A DNA stretch of 64,000 nucleotides from positions 32,001 to 96,000 of the IMG/VR virus record IMGVR_UViG_3300031853_000003. One strand, written 5' to 3'. Positions 16,395 through 32,794 of this stretch are shown in pieces. The notes under the pieces are model-generated. The model was not told the origin of the DNA and searched no databases. It saw only the letters and a program-made list of their open reading frames with translations. The stretch comes from a virus. Its lineage: Duplodnaviria; Caudoviricetes. Positions within the stretch are counted from its first letter, which is position 1; every line of letters begins with the position of its first letter. A program made the translations under genes and the position numbers.

Positions 16395-19300
16395 ATGAAC
16401 ATATCTAAATTCCCTGTAATGAGTACTAACCTGTTTCCAGCTACTAACAGTACTGCTGGTGGTCAGCTCATTACAGAATTCAACTTAAAATCACGAGAAA
16501 CGGTCGGCACGGATCCAACTGTCGAATACAAAGTAGGTCCTTCATATACACACGCAATGAAGGATTTCAAGATAGGTCCTCAGACAGATGAATTCGGCAA
16601 TGTTGTTGCAAGCTCAGTACTTCAGATTGATGCAGGTAGAGCACTGGTTGACGGTTACTTCTTAGAGAGCCTCGCTCCTATAGTAATTGACCTCAATGAG
16701 CTGAATACACAGATTCTTGAAGCTAATCCATCTGCACAGAAGCTCGAAGGCAAGTTAGCTGTAGGGCTTCGTGCAATGTATTCAACAGAGGCTGCAATGG
16801 TTGGTACCATCAAAGTTGAGAATGACTCAACTGCACTATATGATGGTATCCAAGTAGTTATTCTGCCTGAGAGTCAGATGAAGCTGCCTCAGGATGTTCC
16901 TGCAGAGGGTTCAGAGTCACAGGTTACTGCACATCTCAAGCTAGGCTCATTCAGATACAGCCAGCATAACATATATGATGTACAGCAGAATTCTGAGAAG
17001 GTTAAGATCTTCACTGCCGACAGAATAAAGGACATTGATCAGCTGCTGGATAGTAGCTATGTCACCAAGACTGGTGTAGATCCTGATAAGCTGTATGTGC
17101 TTTCAGGTCGTGCAAACGAAGAAAATGCTGGTACCCCTTGGTGTGCTGCTAGTGACTCACTGATGATATGGGATGCAGACCCGACAAAGTTTGGAGCAGA
17201 CCTCAGTAGGTTCCGAACAGTTGCTGCTAATCCTGCTAGAGGAGCAACAGGTTTCATCTCTGATCTCGACGGTGGTAAGATCAAGCTTCGTGTAAAGCAC
17301 AAACAGGTAGACGGATCATCTCCATCAGATCAGTATGCTCCTGTAATATTTGAATTACCTGTTGCTGATTACGATGAAGGCACGCCTGGTACAATCAGCA
17401 AAGCTTACACAGATAAGATCAAAGAGATTTCAAAATCGTTCAACAAGCTGTATCAGATTCCTAACGGAACATATCTTGGATACATCGAATCACTTGATTC
17501 TGTCGAAAGTTTGCCGAAGCCGAAGGACAATCCTAACTGGGAGATCGGCAACTACTTCATCGTAGGTCAGGATAATACAGTCGGATATTCTGAACCTCCT
17601 GTAACAATGTACTTGGTACAGGGCGGAACAGTTCAAAGTATCGAAGCTGTTGAAGATGCAAAAGATGCTATGCTACAAAATGAAATTGTTGTAGCTAAGA
17701 AAGCTATTGCTGATTCTAAGAAGACTATCGCTGATTCTGCAAAGGAAGCAGTTGTAGCAGCTGCGGAAGTTGTTCAGTCTTCACTTGCTTCTAGAGATAA
17801 GTTAAGAGTACTTAGCGATTACGCAAAAGAATCTCAGGACTACGAATACGTAGAGAAGCTTAAAACTCTGCTTACTGCTGCATACAACAAAGCTGTAGAG
17901 ACTCAGGGCTATCTTGAGAACGCTGTTAAGAAGCTAAGGTCATCAGGCTCTTCCGAAGACGTAGATGATTATCTGACAACAGCTCATTCAAAGCTGGATG
18001 CTCTTCAGAGCAACGACACAGTAGAAACTAAGCTGAAGGAAATAAATATATCCGGTTCCACTAAGGCATGGCAATACCTCACAGATGCTGATGAAGCAAT
18101 CCACGGATCATCTAAGGGTGCAAATAAGAGCCTAGATGCAGCGATGGAACTGCTCAGTAGCTCCGGCAGTGAAGATGTTGCTTCAGCTCTTGCAAATCTC
18201 ATTTCTCAGTTACAGAACGGCGGAGATATGGACAGTGTAATTGCTCTTATCCGCAGATACTTAGTTGACTGGGACGGAGAGATGACAACCGTCTACGATT
18301 CAGCTGTTGCAGCATATGAATCTGCACTCTCTGAGTATGAAGCAAAATACATCGACTATCGAATTGCATTGATGATCTACTACAATGCACTTGTTTCACT
18401 CAACGGAAAACTTGCATACTTGATCTTCTCTGATCCGCCAGAGGGCATTGAGCTTGGCAGAAAAGAAGTTACCACAGACCCGACTACAATGTCTATCGAA
18501 GAGGTAGAAGAGCAGTGGCAGATTGCACAAGAAGGTATTATCTGTCCGTATTCAGGTAACGTAGGAAAAGATTACTTCACTCTTGTCTATCACAACCCAA
18601 CAAGTGATGAAGATACGTGTTTCTACTATGTAGTAACACAGGCAGGTGTCAAGAAGCTGTCTGATCCTATCATACTAACAAAGCAGATCAATCTCGCTGA
18701 GCAGAATATGGTAGGCGGCTTCTACAATGTACCTGATACAGCAACTGACAACGGTTATGTATATCTTGATGACACCGGTCATCTTCGACTTGTAGATTAT
18801 GCACTACTCCGTTCTGGTGTAGCAGCATATCAGTTGGGACAAGACATCTCAATTGAAGCAGGTCTATCTACTGAAGAATTACAGATCCAGGTAGACGATT
18901 ACATCAACGAAAGAATCGCCTTCCCGAATGCTTATCAGACTCAGAACAGTAAGTCACCTACAGTCATTCACGTTACGCTGAGCTTGACGAAGGAAGATAC
19001 TCCTAAGACACTCAATCTGTATAACATAGACAGCAGATTTGACACTTGTGTATATCTGCACATCACCGGTACTGCTGACTCTAAGACAACTATCAACATA
19101 ACCAACTGCCAGAAATTGAGAATTGATAATGCTATCGGCGGTGACGCAGAGAACGACAGCTATCCTATCATCAATCTCTATAACTGCAACCTCTTCTATG
19201 ATGTATCTATCCTGAAGAAGTTGACATCATGGGTAACCACACTGGATGAACATAACAATCTGGTGTCCGTCAAGCCTACAGTTTCTGGATTGAAGTTATG

Positions 19301-19859
19301 GTATGAAAGATATGGACTCACTGAGCCGAATCTTGTTGTCGACAACATGACTGTTCTCGATTGCGACGCACCTAAGACAGTAGAGGAACTCGATGCTTGG
19401 TCAGAGTCTCACCCTAACGACATCCATTACTTCTATTCACTGCGTAGCATCACATTTGATGATAAAGCAAACATCATCGGCTGTCAGATGCTTATCCGTA
19501 ATGACTCCACTACGCATAGTTCGGAAGGTAAGGTCATCATATCATCTGATTTCCGACTTCCACAGGGAAGTGGTCTCGAGTATCCAAATACATGTTTGAC
19601 CAAACCTCTGAAGATTACAGGCTCATTCATCAGCATGTATGTATCCGGAAGCACAAAACATCTCACAACGAGTGATTTCACAGCTGTTAGCCAGTACTAC
19701 GACAGGAATCTAGATGATAGCCAGATGGTCGGATCCATCGCTATCTTAGCAGACACCTCCTGGATCACTTCTATTCCGAGTAACATAACAATCAATGAAG
19801 AGGTTCCAGGTTGGGATAACAATACCTTCCACATTTTCTCAGGAGGGATAGTCACTTGA
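16395..19859 (+). CDS. large virion structural protein (baseplate/tail-associated)
   Basis: ACCTTATATA at 16351; LQIDAGRALVDGY motif; located in the tail cluster. Confidence 0.55.
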   Translation: MNISKFPVMSTNLFPATNSTAGGQLITEFNLKSRETVGTDPTVEYKVGPSYTHAMKDFKIGPQTDEFGNVVASSVLQIDAGRALVDGYFLESLAPIVIDLNELNTQILEANPSAQKLEGKLAVGLRAMYSTEAAMVGTIKVENDSTALYDGIQVVILPESQMKLPQDVPAEGSESQVTAHLKLGSFRYSQHNIYDVQQNSEKVKIFTADRIKDIDQLLDSSYVTKTGVDPDKLYVLSGRANEENAGTPWCAASDSLMIWDADPTKFGADLSRFRTVAANPARGATGFISDLDGGKIKLRVKHKQVDGSSPSDQYAPVIFELPVADYDEGTPGTISKAYTDKIKEISKSFNKLYQIPNGTYLGYIESLDSVESLPKPKDNPNWEIGNYFIVGQDNTVGYSEPPVTMYLVQGGTVQSIEAVEDAKDAMLQNEIVVAKKAIADSKKTIADSAKEAVVAAAEVVQSSLASRDKLRVLSDYAKESQDYEYVEKLKTLLTAAYNKAVETQGYLENAVKKLRSSGSSEDVDDYLTTAHSKLDALQSNDTVETKLKEINISGSTKAWQYLTDADEAIHGSSKGANKSLDAAMELLSSSGSEDVASALANLISQLQNGGDMDSVIALIRRYLVDWDGEMTTVYDSAVAAYESALSEYEAKYIDYRIALMIYYNALVSLNGKLAYLIFSDPPEGIELGRKEVTTDPTTMSIEEVEEQWQIAQEGIICPYSGNVGKDYFTLVYHNPTSDEDTCFYYVVTQAGVKKLSDPIILTKQINLAEQNMVGGFYNVPDTATDNGYVYLDDTGHLRLVDYALLRSGVAAYQLGQDISIEAGLSTEELQIQVDDYINERIAFPNAYQTQNSKSPTVIHVTLSLTKEDTPKTLNLYNIDSRFDTCVYLHITGTADSKTTINITNCQKLRIDNAIGGDAENDSYPIINLYNCNLFYDVSILKKLTSWVTTLDEHNNLVSVKPTVSGLKLWYERYGLTEPNLVVDNMTVLDCDAPKTVEELDAWSESHPNDIHYFYSLRSITFDDKANIIGCQMLIRNDSTTHSSEGKVIISSDFRLPQGSGLEYPNTCLTKPLKITGSFISMYVSGSTKHLTTSDFTAVSQYYDRNLDDSQMVGSIAILADTSWITSIPSNITINEEVPGWDNNTFHIFSGGIVT

Positions 19860-20395
19860 GTTACATTATTCATGATGTCATCAAGATGAATTACATCAGG
19901 ATGGGCTACCTTCCTGATTACCCGTATCATCTTATCTCTGATAAAGAGATGTGCGATGCGTTTCTCAATGATGGTGATTTCAGCTACTTTGCAGATAACT
20001 ATCCTTGTGTAGATTCTTCCTTACAGGACGAGTATGATGAACTTGTCAATAATCTGAAATGGCATCTTGAGAAGCTCAAAGCATTTCAATCTAAGAGTGC
20101 AAGCACACGAGAGTATTACATACTTCCTGATTGGGTCTACTCTTACATGTTAGGCTCAACCCTCGGTGTCAATAGTGATAAACTAGAGATACATGATATG
20201 CTTGTACTCATGGATATGGATAATCTTGATGATGTATTCACTCGTCAAGTTGCTAGAAGATGCTATCACATAAGCAAGGATTGGCTCAAGAAGCTGCCCT
20301 CTGCTCAAAAGGAACACAGATCCCCTACAATGTTCGGAGAGCTTCACGTGTTGAAGTCTCTGAGATTAGAAGCTGTAAAATTCGATAAGATATAG
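19856..20395 (+). CDS. hypothetical protein (tail cluster)
   Basis: Coupled TTG start with AGGAGG SD. Confidence 0.55.
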   Translation: MSYIIHDVIKMNYIRMGYLPDYPYHLISDKEMCDAFLNDGDFSYFADNYPCVDSSLQDEYDELVNNLKWHLEKLKAFQSKSASTREYYILPDWVYSYMLGSTLGVNSDKLEIHDMLVLMDMDNLDDVFTRQVARRCYHISKDWLKKLPSAQKEHRSPTMFGELHVLKSLRLEAVKFDKI

Positions 20396-28023: not shown

Positions 28024-28431
28024 ATGGCAGCAAAAACAACATCACTTGCATTTCCGTCAATGTTTGATGTATCTAGAAACAGAGTGCAAGTACTGACTGA
28101 CAACGTATCAATCGTCAATCGGTCAAGACTGCTCATGTTAACTGAGCCTACTGAGCTCTACAATGAGCTTGAATTTGGAGTAGGTCTTCGAAGATACATC
28201 TGGCAATACAATACAGAGAATACAAAAGCAATCATCAAAGAGAGAATCGTCAAGCAGCTTGATAGGTTTGAACCCTGTGTTGAAGCTAGTAAGACCGCAT
28301 TTGCTGACGGACTTCTTTTCACTGGTGACAATGACCCAAATCTCAGCTCTGCACAAGAATTCAATCAGTTGAAGATGACGGTTGGATTGCGTACAAAATA
28401 CGGCGATACTGTTCAAGTAAAGGTGGACTAA
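28024..28431 (+). CDS. baseplate wedge/sheath initiator (gp25-like)
   Basis: LLMLTEPTELY..EFGVGL..YIW...LDRFEP. Confidence 0.75.
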   Translation: MAAKTTSLAFPSMFDVSRNRVQVLTDNVSIVNRSRLLMLTEPTELYNELEFGVGLRRYIWQYNTENTKAIIKERIVKQLDRFEPCVEASKTAFADGLLFTGDNDPNLSSAQEFNQLKMTVGLRTKYGDTVQVKVD

Positions 28432-28432
28432 C

Positions 28433-30367
28433 ATGGATAACAACAGAGGTATGATAAATTACACTGATCGAGATTACGAGAGCATCATGAAAGACTTCTG
28501 GGCTCTTGTACCTGCGTTGACAGAGCTCTGGAAGCCGGAGGCGGTTGAGCGTTTGGACAAGGAGGACGTTGACCTCTGGAAGCCAGAAGCTGATGCAGAT
28601 CCGGGTGTTGTTCTCGGCAAGTGGCTTGCAAGTGTAGCGAATATGCTCGGAGTCAATGTAGATTGGCTTGCCAATGAGATATTTGCTCCGTCAGTATCTC
28701 AGCGTAAGAATGCTGAGAAGATATTCGGACTCATCGGATATGAACTTGGGTGGTACACTGCCGCAAGGACAGAAGTAACATTCACAAATAGCTCGGATTC
28801 AGATATCTCATTCAACTTAGGATTCAACGGAGCAAACTTCGCAACGCTGAATGCTTACACTGACATAGCTGATAACTCTCGTGTTATTACATATAATATA
28901 TTGCCGTCTACAAACACATACGGAGCAACAGAAAGCCGCAGTCGAAGAACTGTTGCAACATCTAATCTTGATGTTTTCACTAACACCGACAAAGTATATC
29001 TGAAACCTGGTGAGAGTGTAACACGTGTTGCTATTGAAGGCGAATTGAGAAGCTATACACTTTCCGTGAAAGATATCATCGCTAACAATTACATCATTCG
29101 ACTTCCTTCTCAGCATATCGACACAACTGCCATATGGGTGAAAGCTAAAGCGTCAAGAGGTAGCACGCAGTTCCTCAAGACGCAATGGATCCAATGTAGC
29201 AGCGCAGCTGAATTCGTTCAACCCGAGCCGAGATTCGCTGTCACATATGATTCATACTCTAACGCACAGATTCAGATAAGCAACTACCTCAATCAGCTAG
29301 AAGATTACAGCGATAACTACTTGACAATCTTCTGGATTGATTGCTCAGGTATTATCGGCTGTGTTGGCCAGAATGTATTGCAGAACTTCTTACCAGCTAT
29401 TGGAGATGCTCCTGATGAAGAGTCTGGAATTCTCACAGTGTCCAATCTGTCAAACACAGTCGAGCTTCCGAACACCTATACAGTAACAGGTAGAAGTCCT
29501 GAGACTGCAAAGGAAGCGTATTACAACAGTCGTAACTACATCAACACATTTGACAGTTTAGTGACCCTGCCGGATTTCAACAGATTCTTGAATAGAGAAG
29601 CTGGTGTCGATTGCGGACTTGTTATCGACTGCCAGAAGGCGCTTGAGATCAACATGGCCATCTACAACGACAAGTCTCTCACAGATAGCCAGAAGTCAAA
29701 GATGTATATCACCAACTACGACTTCCCGGCAGGCGAGCCTATACATGATTGGAAATCCGTATTGAATCTAGGATTTGATCCAGAAGATCCAAACAACTTT
29801 GTGTTCGCAGCCAACTTCCATACATACACAGCGATGTGTTTCGCAATTCACAATGATTTCAAAAACAGCTCGTTCGGCAACGGTAGCATAGCTCATGCAC
29901 AAGTAGAAGATGGTGTGAAGTTCCAGAGATACAAACCTCCGGTACAATTCATTGAGAACGTGAAGAGAGATTATCGTCCTTTACAGGCGATGTCAGTCGA
30001 ACTCGAATTCGGCTATCTGAGAATCTTCCCTTGGTATGTAGTAGGTCAGATCTATCCGAAGAAACCTGTATCCTCTGACGTAGCTGCAAATCTTGTAGCG
30101 AAGGTCAAGGAAGCACTCGCAATGTATTTCGCTCCTGCAAACAGACGTATTGGGCAGAAGCCTACTGTGATGGAAGTCGTTGATGTTGTCAGAAAGTGCG
30201 ACAGCAACATAGATTACTTCGATGCAGGCAGCTTGAAAAACAATGTCATCACATGGAAGAATTGTGATCCAGAGTACTTCAATCCCATTTCATTCTGTAA
30301 GTATTCCGACCTAGGTTCAGACGCAAATAATATTCGTATTGCACCGGAATACATTATAGATAATTAA
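28433..30367 (+). CDS. baseplate wedge protein (gp6/J-like)
   Basis: YTDRDYESI, DPGVVL, LIGYEL..AART, G.SPET..E, LVTLPDF. Confidence 0.75.
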   Translation: MDNNRGMINYTDRDYESIMKDFWALVPALTELWKPEAVERLDKEDVDLWKPEADADPGVVLGKWLASVANMLGVNVDWLANEIFAPSVSQRKNAEKIFGLIGYELGWYTAARTEVTFTNSSDSDISFNLGFNGANFATLNAYTDIADNSRVITYNILPSTNTYGATESRSRRTVATSNLDVFTNTDKVYLKPGESVTRVAIEGELRSYTLSVKDIIANNYIIRLPSQHIDTTAIWVKAKASRGSTQFLKTQWIQCSSAAEFVQPEPRFAVTYDSYSNAQIQISNYLNQLEDYSDNYLTIFWIDCSGIIGCVGQNVLQNFLPAIGDAPDEESGILTVSNLSNTVELPNTYTVTGRSPETAKEAYYNSRNYINTFDSLVTLPDFNRFLNREAGVDCGLVIDCQKALEINMAIYNDKSLTDSQKSKMYITNYDFPAGEPIHDWKSVLNLGFDPEDPNNFVFAANFHTYTAMCFAIHNDFKNSSFGNGSIAHAQVEDGVKFQRYKPPVQFIENVKRDYRPLQAMSVELEFGYLRIFPWYVVGQIYPKKPVSSDVAANLVAKVKEALAMYFAPANRRIGQKPTVMEVVDVVRKCDSNIDYFDAGSLKNNVITWKNCDPEYFNPISFCKYSDLGSDANNIRIAPEYIIDN

Positions 30368-30390
30368 AATCCTGATTCGTTATATAGTAC

Positions 30391-30830
30391 ATAACACCGC
30401 CGCCGAAGAGACGCCGGCCATCATCCTCCGCTCGTTGCCATCGCGGAGGCCTTCTTTCAGCTGGCAGTAGGTCGCGGATAGTAACATACTGTCAAACAGT
30501 TCTTTGTATTCTTCGTAGCCTGAGAATATTGTGTTACACGCCGGGCGTGATCGTTGCCCCGCATCAAATTACCGCGAAGACGTTGCGGCGGTGTTATTAC
30601 GCAAATTAACTGCCAGCATTTGGCCAGATCAGGCCTCCTAGAGAGCTGGTGAATCTGCTAGAGAGATTTTGCAAGTGGAGACAAATGTCGTAGAAGCGGC
30701 TCAATGAACCTAGCGGACAGGCAGATTACATCGGTGCAGTTGCTGCCATACTTTAACAACTACCTCATTGGTTCTCTGAAAATAATAGGCGAACAGCGTC
30801 TGGGCAACTGCTCAGGCGCTGTTTGTTATA
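30391..30830 (+). ncRNA. candidate large structured non-coding RNA (family unidentified)
   Basis: ORF-free GC-rich spacer; TCGTTA motif just upstream; 13-bp perfect pairing 30391-30403/30585-30597; several more stems; terminal 14-bp hairpin. Confidence 0.6.
30792..30830 (+). terminator. hairpin closing the ncRNA candidate
   Basis: AACAGCGTCTGGGC-aact-GCTCAGGCGCTGTT (two G-U pairs) followed by TGTTAT. Confidence 0.6.
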
Positions 30831-30872
30831 GCACCTTTAATAACATTAAACACTATGTATGGAGGTAACTGA

Positions 30873-32135
30873 ATGAAGTTTTCTGATATTTCGGTTCCTG
30901 AGATATACAAGTCAAGCGCAGATTTCAGATTCTTCCTAAGGTGGTTCTCTGAATCTCTGCATCGAATAAAGTACGATACAGAGAATATGTTTGATTTGTA
31001 TGATCCGCTACGCTGTCCGTCTAAACTACTCTGGATGCTTGCAGATAGTATGGGCTTCAAGTATGATGACCGGTTGTCAACAGCCTTCAATCGACTTGTA
31101 CTTGTCTACTTCATGTCGATGATTCGCAACAAGGGTAGCAAGGACGGTGTGACGCTTGCAGCTGAGATCAATCTTGCACAGTTCAAACTACAGCAGCTTT
31201 CGTCTGAGTATTCCACTGACAGTGAGTTCGACAACGACAAAGAAGATTGGATGCAAGATAGCTATCATGACGATATCTTAGATGATCGTCTTGAGGATAC
31301 GTCTATCCCTGTAAATTCTGTATACGTCACCCCTCATACATCAAAAGGATACATCGAAGTAGTTTACTTCGCTGATAGAGTCCCTACAGACGCGTGTATA
31401 GAATACGTCAGACCGCTTGGAATGTATATGTTCCAGTACGCAGGTGTAAGATACGACTCCAGAACAAAGATATCTATCGATGCTCGACTGACAAATGAAA
31501 GAGATGTAGGCGTATCCATCGGACCTACTCATGTCGGACACTACAGACGTGACGATTATGCACGTATGCAGAGACTCAATGAAGGTACAGAGCCGAATAC
31601 ATTGAGAGCAAGAGCTGTAAACAGAAATGATGTGTACGATCCTACTAACTACAGAGGACACGTCAAGACTCCTAATGCGCCTTATGGTAAGACAGCATTG
31701 TCGAATGATCCACGTCATCCTGTGTATTATAGAAATTCTCAGATTGAGGGTCAGCCTAACGACTATGTCAATCCAGGATACCGAGCTCTCTATTCATTGC
31801 AGTTGTGTAACAACGAGCATATCATCAAATCACTCATTCCAAAGATATTCAGTATCGGCTATGGTCCGCAAGACGTTGAAGTCTCAACGTATTATCCTGA
31901 TAACTATCTCGATGTTCCTGACCAGCCGCCGTACAACTTAAGATACCATCGTGACGCAGAGATGTCAATCACACCGAACGAAACTGGTGTAGCTGATGCA
32001 GATCCTGATGTATACACCATTGAGGACGATCGTACTCGTGGAGTTACATCGCCCAGACCTGCTGTCAATCCGATTATGGGTACAATTGGTGACGCTATAT
32101 CTCTTGCAGAAGATGAATGGAAGCAGGGAAGCTAA
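30873..32135 (+). CDS. baseplate/tail protein (P2 gpI / gp7-like)
   Basis: DPLRCP..LLWMLADSMGF...RNKGSKDGV; ACCTTTAATA at 30833. Confidence 0.65.
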   Translation: MKFSDISVPEIYKSSADFRFFLRWFSESLHRIKYDTENMFDLYDPLRCPSKLLWMLADSMGFKYDDRLSTAFNRLVLVYFMSMIRNKGSKDGVTLAAEINLAQFKLQQLSSEYSTDSEFDNDKEDWMQDSYHDDILDDRLEDTSIPVNSVYVTPHTSKGYIEVVYFADRVPTDACIEYVRPLGMYMFQYAGVRYDSRTKISIDARLTNERDVGVSIGPTHVGHYRRDDYARMQRLNEGTEPNTLRARAVNRNDVYDPTNYRGHVKTPNAPYGKTALSNDPRHPVYYRNSQIEGQPNDYVNPGYRALYSLQLCNNEHIIKSLIPKIFSIGYGPQDVEVSTYYPDNYLDVPDQPPYNLRYHRDAEMSITPNETGVADADPDVYTIEDDRTRGVTSPRPAVNPIMGTIGDAISLAEDEWKQGS

Positions 32136-32794
32136 TGATACAAAGATACACAAAAGTAGATTTCAGTAGGAATCTCATCAATCTACTGAACGGCGTTTAC
32201 AATGTGTCAAATGACAACTATGAATATGAGCTTGTAATCAGCAACAATCATATACAGGTTCATGGATCTGTCAAAACTGTTGGCACATTCATATCACGAA
32301 TACCAGTTGCGGTACAGCCACCATTGTATAAGAATGTATGGTACACTTTCTCTGCTCAGAATATTGTATCTGAGGGAGAAAGTAGAGGACTTACTTCACT
32401 TTACTGTTCGCAGATGAGCGGTAGCAAGTATTGGGGCGGACGTCTTCCACTTATCGGTAGTGGTGTTACAGACGGAGTATCGGTCAAGTCCTCAATTGGT
32501 TTCTGCGATAGATATGTTGCGGACGGCGGAAGATATGTTCCAAATACTGCAACCGCCTGGTCTTTATATCTGTACATGGTAGGTAGTGGCACACAGGGGC
32601 TTGCTTTCAATCTATCATTTGACCTGATGTTAGATCTGGGACATACTGCTACAGAGTTCGAACCATACGACAAGACCAAATCTGTATACATCACACGAAC
32701 AATGCTGTTGTATCCTGCAACAGATCTATTCCCGTCTACAGAGCTGTTCCCAGTAGATCCAAAATATGGTCTTCAGATCAGAGAAGAACACTGA
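32135..32794 (+). CDS. putative tail fibre / receptor-binding accessory protein
   Basis: RNLIN..., ATEFEPY, LYPATDLFPSTELFP motifs seen in fibre proteins. Confidence 0.45.
   Translation: MIQRYTKVDFSRNLINLLNGVYNVSNDNYEYELVISNNHIQVHGSVKTVGTFISRIPVAVQPPLYKNVWYTFSAQNIVSEGESRGLTSLYCSQMSGSKYWGGRLPLIGSGVTDGVSVKSSIGFCDRYVADGGRYVPNTATAWSLYLYMVGSGTQGLAFNLSFDLMLDLGHTATEFEPYDKTKSVYITRTMLLYPATDLFPSTELFPVDPKYGLQIREEH

Follow-up and report, generated by a model that had tools for sequence, protein, structure and literature searches.

The region discussed here lies in a 64,000-nt stretch of a tailed-phage genome (Duplodnaviria; Caudoviricetes), positions 32,001 to 96,000 of the IMG/VR record IMGVR_UViG_3300031853_000003. 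This stretch is called the window below, and coordinates refer to it unless the genome is named. The complete virus record measures 155,391 bp with direct terminal repeats, and its substantial open reading frames (ORFs) all lie on the + strand. Within the window, a 644-aa gene (28433-30367) with a weak match to a baseplate-wedge family and a 420-aa gene (30873-32135), whose relatives bear a P2 gpI-type baseplate domain, are separated by a gap for which a preliminary description, made from the sequence alone, had proposed a large structured RNA. The analysis presented here indicates that the gap probably holds a genuine, new phage non-coding RNA (ncRNA) of about 340-440 nt that is restricted to one phage species. 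As that description had noted, the gap is the largest between genes and GC-rich: 30368-30872 is the longest part of the window free of + strand ORFs, also at a 50-aa threshold, and the GC content is 0.53 (30388-30640; 52-53%) vs 0.437 for the whole window. The stretch is single-copy, as no paralogue was found in the whole genome by blastn-short.

The gap opens with the promoter-like motif TCGTTATATA (30377-30386, + strand), which is located directly 3' of the stop codon of the wedge gene and is conserved in every natural haplotype that reaches that far. The 10-mer occurs 10 times in the genome when up to one mismatch is allowed (4.7 expected). Its TCGTTA portion is found 57 times on the + strand vs 17 times on the - strand, mostly 25-40 nt upstream of a ribosome-binding site and also about 10 nt upstream of a tRNA-Pro. 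At the other end of the gap, a long hairpin (30789-30826) followed by UUUGUUAU forms a terminator-like end of the unit. Outside the RNA lies CCTTTAATAA (30834-30843, + strand), a promoter-like motif of the late CCTTWWATA class for the downstream baseplate gene. Motifs of this class occur 20 times on the + strand vs once on the - strand, upstream of structural genes (window examples: 11403, 16352, 30834 and 32801). The other class, TCGTTA(W)(W)(W)A, precedes many non-structural genes and a tRNA (window examples: 3981, 30377, 45274 and 52981). From their distribution, the two strand-biased motif classes look like temporal classes of phage promoters. As far as sequence motifs go (strand biases of 57:17 and 20:1), it is therefore reasonable to read the unit as originally proposed, with a structured body between a non-late promoter and a terminal hairpin, and with a late promoter behind them.

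The organization of the same junction was compared across related phages, using 69 related loci from viral contigs and more from assemblies (about 70 relatives in all, loci L002-L073). In most of these gut and rumen phages, just 8-18 bp separate the wedge gene from the gpI-like gene. Unrelated inserts of 129-2713 bp occupy this position in about 20 relatives. Three of these inserts (129-149 bp) are without an ORF, while most carry diverse + strand ORFs; those that were scanned encode SSB-domain proteins, an amidase, a DUF7487 protein and unknowns. The stretch resembles none of the relatives' inserts, neither at the DNA nor at the translated level (tblastx included). In the nearest relative outside the species (L004; 64% identity in the downstream protein), the gap measures 129 bp and holds only an equivalent hairpin with T-run and the same late motif, so that 30789-30872 can be regarded as an ancestral terminator-promoter-ribosome-binding-site module. 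Judged from this comparison, about 420 nt (30377-30788, from TCGTTATATA on) is an insertion between the stop codon of the wedge gene and the operon terminator, and the junction 30367/30873 is an accessory-gene hotspot in the approximately 70 related gut and rumen phages.

This genomic arrangement bears directly on a rival explanation, in which the stretch would be a cis-acting part of the baseplate-operon mRNA. As the 3' untranslated region of the wedge gene or the leader of the next gene, it would tune read-through or translation of the downstream baseplate genes by alternative folds, and the abundant RNA fragment would be a nuclease-resistant decay product. That the shared terminator hairpin and the late promoter motif both follow the stretch suits this idea. 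However, the same two genes lie 8-18 bp apart in most relatives, which therefore need no such leader. Moreover, a late-class promoter motif of its own precedes the downstream gene, past the terminator hairpin, and the insert bears a promoter motif of its own that belongs to the other class. A cis-acting role is consequently considered unlikely. The RNA data and the folds that could support such a role are taken up further below.

For the insert itself, 11 distinct natural haplotypes could be collected from Logan and ENA assemblies. They all represent a single phage species, with about 95% identity, and their flanking proteins differ by 0-8 residues. The insert contains no ORF of at least 60 aa with a start codon, and the sole 54-aa ORF has lost its ATG in 10 of the 11 haplotypes. 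The haplotypes further differ by indels of +1, +2, +3, +5, -29, -35 and about -37 nt, which are mostly not multiples of three. A protein search with the longest + strand open frame (the one frame searched) returned no homologue. A protein-coding gene or pseudogene was thus rejected, based on the absence of an ORF of at least 60 aa, the non-triplet indels, the lack of a protein homologue and the lack of a tblastx match.

The mean pairwise divergence of the RNA region is 5.2%; in the adjacent gene, third codon positions diverge by 10.6% and positions 1+2 by 1.0%. Across the 11 haplotypes, 74 of 404 positions are variable. The longest run that is invariant in all of them is a 45-nt block (30639-30683, + strand) in which CUAGAGAG occurs twice, 20 nt apart. 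The word CTAGAGAG is found at 30638-30645 and 30658-30665, likewise 20 nt apart, and nowhere else in the 155-kb genome. The tetranucleotide CTAG is scarce genome-wide (282 observed vs 580 expected), yet three copies are present within 75 nt here. Taken together, these sequence comparisons indicate that the insert is non-coding and under purifying selection.

The + strand of the insert folds better than its shuffled counterparts (z = -3.78, with 0 of 100 shuffles as good), whereas the - strand reaches z = -1.68, with 10 of 100 shuffles as good. In addition, the wobble states seen among the natural variants (G30416-U30462, U30415-G30463, U30624-G30633 and G30576-U30584) pair only as + strand RNA. 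The + strand is favored on account of these wobbles and the promoter motif, in agreement with the earlier argument from G-U pairs.

The stems listed in the preliminary description were all recovered, namely the 13-bp repeat, CCTCCGC/GCGGAGG, GCTGGCAGT/ACTGCCAGC, GGAGGCCT/AGGCCTCC, AATCTGC/GCAGATT and the terminal hairpin. Their support by natural variation is very different, and a set of local helices emerges. In the 5' domain (30411-30468, + strand), a helix formed by 30411-19/30459-68 surrounds the hairpin 30425-31/30443-49. The variants of the outer helix include A-U to U.G (both sides changed), C-G to U.G, G.U to G-C and C.A to U-A, and the closing pair of the inner hairpin changes from C-G to U-A in two haplotypes. 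The next hairpin (30481-30537, + strand) consists of a constant 6-bp base (30481-86/30532-37), invariant in 11 of 11 haplotypes, and a dispensable tip. This tip is found in four lengths: the full form with 45 nt between the arms, a form that is 29 nt shorter, and two forms that are about 35-37 nt shorter.

Two further hairpins present the tetranucleotide GAUC in their loops. The first (30540-30562, + strand; stem 30540-47/30555-62) is constant in its stem save for one G-C to G.U change, and its loop flanks vary around a constant GAUC (30549-52). The second (30622-30635, + strand; stem 30622-25/30632-35) has a hypervariable loop centered on GAUC (30627-30); its third pair is C-G in six haplotypes, U.G in two and U-A in three. 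One haplotype has GGUU in place of the GAUC at 30627-30, by which wobble pairing with the GAUC of the other loop is still possible. From their sequences, the two loops may be in kissing contact. GATC is not avoided in the genome (762 observed vs 580 expected), and its occurrence in the two loops therefore carries no restriction-avoidance meaning.

The 3' domain (30652-30727, + strand) would be closed by the invariant stem 30652-58/30721-27 or, alternatively, by 30654-61/30710-17. In two small helices (30698-702/30706-10 and 30714-16/30731-33), C-G is replaced by U-A in some haplotypes and intermediate states also occur; both helices were picked after the variation was known. A small, invariant terminal hairpin, GCAG-UUG-CUGC (30736-30746, + strand), follows at the 3' edge of the RNA contigs described below.

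When the helix model was scored on the 11-haplotype alignment (A5), 98.1% of the pairs were maintained and five pairs were changed on both sides, a result that was reached by 0 of 500 shuffles and by none of the slid controls; several of the one-sided changes are transitions, which are compatible by default. The divergent haplotype L076 by itself contributes three pair-keeping double changes. The natural variation thus supports five predicted local helices, i.e. 30411-19/30459-68, 30425-31/30443-49, 30481-86/30532-37, 30540-47/30555-62 and 30622-25/30632-35.

The same variation contradicts the pseudoknot or two-state switch that had been proposed from two stems crossing the 13-bp stem. For 30460-68/30609-17, only disruptions are observed in the 11 haplotypes (nine of the 11 turn U-A into C.A, and further C.A and G.A mismatches occur). 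In 30445-52/30631-38, four out of eight pairs are disrupted (five haplotype cells in total). Because both crossing stems show nothing but disruptions, neither a pseudoknot nor a switch built on them is supported. The originally proposed stem set, leaving out 30425-31/30443-49 as it overlaps the 30445-52 stem, contains 0 pairs changed on both sides. The local helix 30411-19/30459-68 instead accommodates the very substitutions by which the crossing stems are broken (30462 U>C; 30468 U>G combined with 30411 A>U). A bulged version of the 30460-68/30609-17 stem is preferred by RNAalifold on the trimmed RNA. It was not adopted, since three substitutions contradict its body and the three supportive changes are default-compatible transitions at G.U pairs.

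The 13-bp long-range stem is a perfect inverted repeat whose 5' arm (30391-30403, + strand) lies just outside the RNA-library contigs and whose 3' arm (30585-30597, + strand) closes a segment of 181 nt. By an arithmetic estimate, about 0.002 such repeats would be expected by chance within 500 nt. The stem is invariant in 10 of the 11 haplotypes, while L074 has two uncompensated mismatches. It is lengthened by 30584 U>G in three haplotypes, and 30582 G>U adds wobble pairs in two of these (L088/L089). No covariation was found for this stem among the 11 haplotypes.

A local hairpin (30572-30588, + strand; 30572-77/30583-88) with a variable loop (30578-82) is a rival to the 13-bp stem and was flagged by a terminator scan. 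The substitution 30576 G>A turns its G.U into A-U in six haplotypes, making it perfect, and 30584 U>G disrupts it (G.G) in three. Based on these variants, a true competition between the 13-bp stem (with TCGCGG/CCGCGA) and the hairpin is possible. In favor of the cis-acting explanation, the hairpin, followed by a U-rich run, scores terminator-like while competing with the 13-bp stem, and 30576 G>A and 30584 T>G push the balance of the two folds in opposite ways and never occur together. A second potential regulatory contact is the 80% complementarity over 15 nt between 30737-30751 and 30857-30871, the latter containing the GGAGG (30861-65) of the gene at 30873. However, both arms of this anti-ribosome-binding-site pairing are invariant, and it is consequently without covariation.

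The 13-bp repeat also invites a different rival explanation, according to which the insert would be a functionless remnant of mobile or foreign DNA. It could be what is left of an accessory gene, or else a miniature inverted-repeat element that has the 13-bp repeats as its borders; its presence in RNA libraries would then be incidental. The location in an insertion hotspot, the GC content above the phage average and the distribution limited to one phage species are in line with such an origin, as is the resemblance of the 13-bp pair around 181 nt to terminal inverted repeats with TAC at both outer sides. However, as GTAC is palindromic, the 'TAC' duplication can equally be read as an extension of the stem. 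A remnant is further difficult to reconcile with a divergence at half the neighboring third-codon rate, the 45-nt invariant block and the compensatory changes. Neither similarity to a protein (in the one + strand frame searched) nor a tblastx match to the relatives' inserts was found that would point to a decayed gene. A miniature inverted-repeat transposable element was rejected, as the insert is single-copy in the genome and the exact inverted-repeat pattern gave 0 matches in 2.9 million viral contigs. Overall, a functionless remnant is held to be very unlikely.

The size plan of retron ncRNAs, which a 13-bp repeat around roughly 180 nt resembles, suggests yet another option. In this case, the unclassified reverse transcriptase that the phage itself encodes would have the RNA as its partner, be it as template or as scaffold, and the 13-bp repeat would act as a retron-like a1/a2 stem. 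Similar to retron msr-msd RNAs, a perfect 13-bp inverted repeat closes 181 nt and a reverse transcriptase is present in the genome. This 435-aa RVT_1 protein (E = 5.7e-16) fits no curated reverse transcriptase subfamily, and four complete related phages lack it as well as the RNA. However, this co-absence amounts to a single evolutionary observation. The RNA gene of retrons, DRT systems and diversity-generating retroelements sits beside the reverse transcriptase gene. Here, the latter is 42 kb away, has its own 210-nt ORF-free stretch directly upstream and shares no sequence repeat with the RNA locus. No retron family is among the Rfam matches, and the RNA-library contigs pass the 3' repeat by 150 nt and omit the 5' repeat. 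A partnership of this kind is accordingly thought to be highly improbable. The reverse transcriptase (genome positions 18810-20117; L095:1096-2403) is the only one found, and the group II, retron, DRT and Cas-associated models all score far below their cut-off.

Sequence runs provide an independent view on the element. The stretch is present, in whole or in part, in 20 of the 24 runs listed. These 20 come from 17 studies, all of bovine gut or rumen, and six of the runs are RNA libraries; 16 listed runs, of which one may be the source sample, contain at least half of the sampled words. One RNA run from each of three studies was compared over 28400-32200, along with one DNA run. Each RNA run yields a single contig that does not extend into unlike sequence: 30406-30747, identical to the window (X13), 30408-30736 followed by Illumina adapter (X16), and 30412-30746 with nine substitutions that correspond to a known haplotype (X17). 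The DNA-run contig (X2), on the other hand, crosses the whole region (29764-31055). The minimal RNA, seen as stand-alone contigs in these metatranscriptome libraries, therefore covers 30406-30747 (+ strand), with true ends uncertain by about 30 nt. The contigs from the three studies are a weak hint of a discrete RNA. They also hint weakly against the cis-acting explanation, as they cover the insert alone. In the RNA runs X13 and X16, the flanking genes are without cover, but missing cover was not counted as evidence; the shares of sampled words in X3-X12, X14, X15 and X18-X20 were likewise left out of account.

The candidate could not be assigned to a known RNA family. With cmscan at gathering thresholds, the whole window gave 0 matches to the 4227 Rfam models, and within 30200-31000 the only match at E up to 10 was Sr006 (E = 4.8, chance level). 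No match was thus obtained to ROOL, GOLLD, 6S RNA or tmRNA, and RNase P RNA, group I and group II introns, riboswitches and the other curated families were rejected on the same ground. ARAGORN likewise detected 0 tRNA or tmRNA genes in the 64-kb window, so that the earlier failure to recognize a tRNA, tmRNA, RNase P RNA or intron is borne out. Tandem Repeats Finder reported 0 arrays in 30300-30900. Lacking tandem direct repeats, a type III toxin-antitoxin RNA and a CRISPR-like array were dismissed.

Searches for homologues were similarly without result. Neither blastn of the gap (in 'distant' mode) nor tblastn of the wedge protein returned anything from 50,697 phage records. A 20-mer from the invariant block, which lies outside the repeat-bounded element, is absent from the viral contigs, the JGI metagenome contigs and the GTDB genomes searched. 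Covariance models of the 5' domain (R1) and the 3' domain (R2) gave only one match in four complete related phages (E = 0.16), located within an opposite-strand ORF. The R2 model found no homologue in 156 bacterial genomes, i.e. five genomes holding related phages and 151 genomes of the Ruminococcus callidus family; both models were built from near-identical sequences, so that distant relatives could be missed. As far as these searches reach, the element appears to be restricted to one widespread rumen phage species. An antisense scan of the invariant block vs the whole + strand gave a best duplex of -42.5 kcal/mol, compared to shuffled minima of -33.5 to -38.6 kcal/mol; with only 10 shuffles and with heavily bulged alignments, this value was given no weight.

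By analogy, ROOL and GOLLD are the known RNAs nearest in kind to the candidate. ROOL has a length of roughly 580 nt. The candidate is shorter (about 340-440 nt), is limited to a single species and lies between baseplate genes with no tRNA in the 64-kb window, whereas ROOL is often located near tRNA islands (PMC12286853). ROOL is a large structured RNA of phages and prophages, without an assigned function, that was first seen in rumen metagenomes and whose kissing loops help to build its structure (PMC12286853). The candidate is comparable in that it is also a rumen-phage RNA of several hundred nucleotides, with multiple helices and two loops able to kiss, but it shows no covariance-model match to ROOL even at E up to 10. 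GOLLD, also a large structured phage and prophage RNA without an assigned function, often exceeds 800 nt, is frequently found near tRNA genes and shows increased expression in phage lysis; both ROOL and GOLLD assemble through kissing loops (PMC12286853). A covariance-model match to GOLLD is lacking as well. Membership in either family is hence excluded by the covariance-model test. In the preliminary description, an ornate-like RNA, a 6S-like decoy or a sponge had been suggested as possible roles. The candidate differs from 6S RNA in having no Rfam 6S match and in its branched consensus folds of more than 340 nt. 6S RNA itself, a stable and abundant regulatory RNA that binds RNA polymerase, forms one rod-like structure of about 180-200 nt that has a bubble at its center.

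Some information on the host can be derived from the flanking genes. A 51%-identical relative of the baseplate gene is located inside the chromosome of Ruminococcus callidus ATCC 27760 (L098, 1,485,035-1,492,183), and relatives also occur in several Clostridia bins. The presence in a complete bacterial chromosome suggests a prophage relative and a Ruminococcus/Clostridia host range for the phage group, and together these relatives point to a Clostridia-type host. In the phage itself, no integrase or resolvase family was found, and for this reason the idea that the RNA is expressed from a prophage while the late genes are silent is without support. In one haplotype (L084:1-729), gene calling yields a 536-aa product and a separate 81-aa ORF in place of the single 644-aa wedge gene, which may reflect a frameshift or an assembly error.

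The explanation that best accommodates these observations, and that is regarded as fairly likely, makes the stretch an accessory ('moron') gene whose product is a stable, structured ncRNA acting in trans. The + strand would be transcribed from its own non-late TCGTTATATA promoter, with a start near 30388-30392, and the RNA would persist as a species covering at least 30406-30747. Its predicted fold is a chain of local helices: the 5' stem-hairpin domain, the hairpin with the dispensable tip, the two GAUC-loop hairpins, which may kiss, and the 3' domain. The invariant 45-nt block with its twin CUAGAGAG would be the likely recognition surface. During infection, the RNA might then act in trans as a protein-binding or a decoy/scaffold RNA.

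Several points weigh against this explanation. The preliminary description had regarded the RNA as independently transcribed. Its promoter-like motif and the contigs of about 340 nt in the RNA libraries of three studies agree with that claim. However, the contigs show neither strand, ends nor level, and RNA libraries can contain DNA, because of which transcription is indicated and not proven. The contig ends furthermore adjoin polymorphic sites (30404/5, 30411 and 30749-52). Assembly breaks could mimic discrete ends at such sites, and tip clipping could conceal as many as about 30 nt on either side. The RNA may thus begin immediately behind the promoter motif and include the 5' arm of the 13-bp stem. 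The long-range architecture is two-way, with the 13-bp stem competing with the hairpin 30572-88 and two alternative stems closing the 3' domain. As all 11 haplotypes stem from one species, the covariation rests on few events, and the two small 3' helices were chosen post hoc. In the collections searched, no homologue occurs outside this phage species, which precludes a deep comparative test.

A bolder version of the trans-acting gene would make the candidate a new class of phage effector RNA that is produced before the late genes. By analogy to the ornate phage RNAs, the GAUC loops would then mediate the formation of dimers or larger RNA-only particles. The twin-CUAGAGAG block would capture a host factor (a defence protein, a nuclease, or a transcription or translation component), or the RNA would serve the orphan reverse transcriptase. 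In both cases, a free-standing RNA weapon would be carried in a hotspot among structural genes. This scenario is quite unlikely at present.

The large structured RNAs of phages, such as ROOL and GOLLD, are among the least understood microbial gene products, and a new class would offer another handle on them. The candidate has practical merits in this respect, being compact and present in independent rumen RNA data sets. Its haplotypes already map the dispensable parts (the hairpin tip and the loop flanks) relative to the untouchable 45-nt block. As the hotspot carries protein cargo in the relatives, RNA and protein accessory genes can be compared at one and the same locus. Should the RNA prove to be merely a stable by-product, it would still point to a new class of promoters and to a hotspot for insertions in a widespread group of rumen and gut myoviruses. 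If, on the other hand, the RNA acts against a defence of the host or reprograms a host of the Clostridia type, the phage-host biology of the rumen would gain an RNA-based mechanism.

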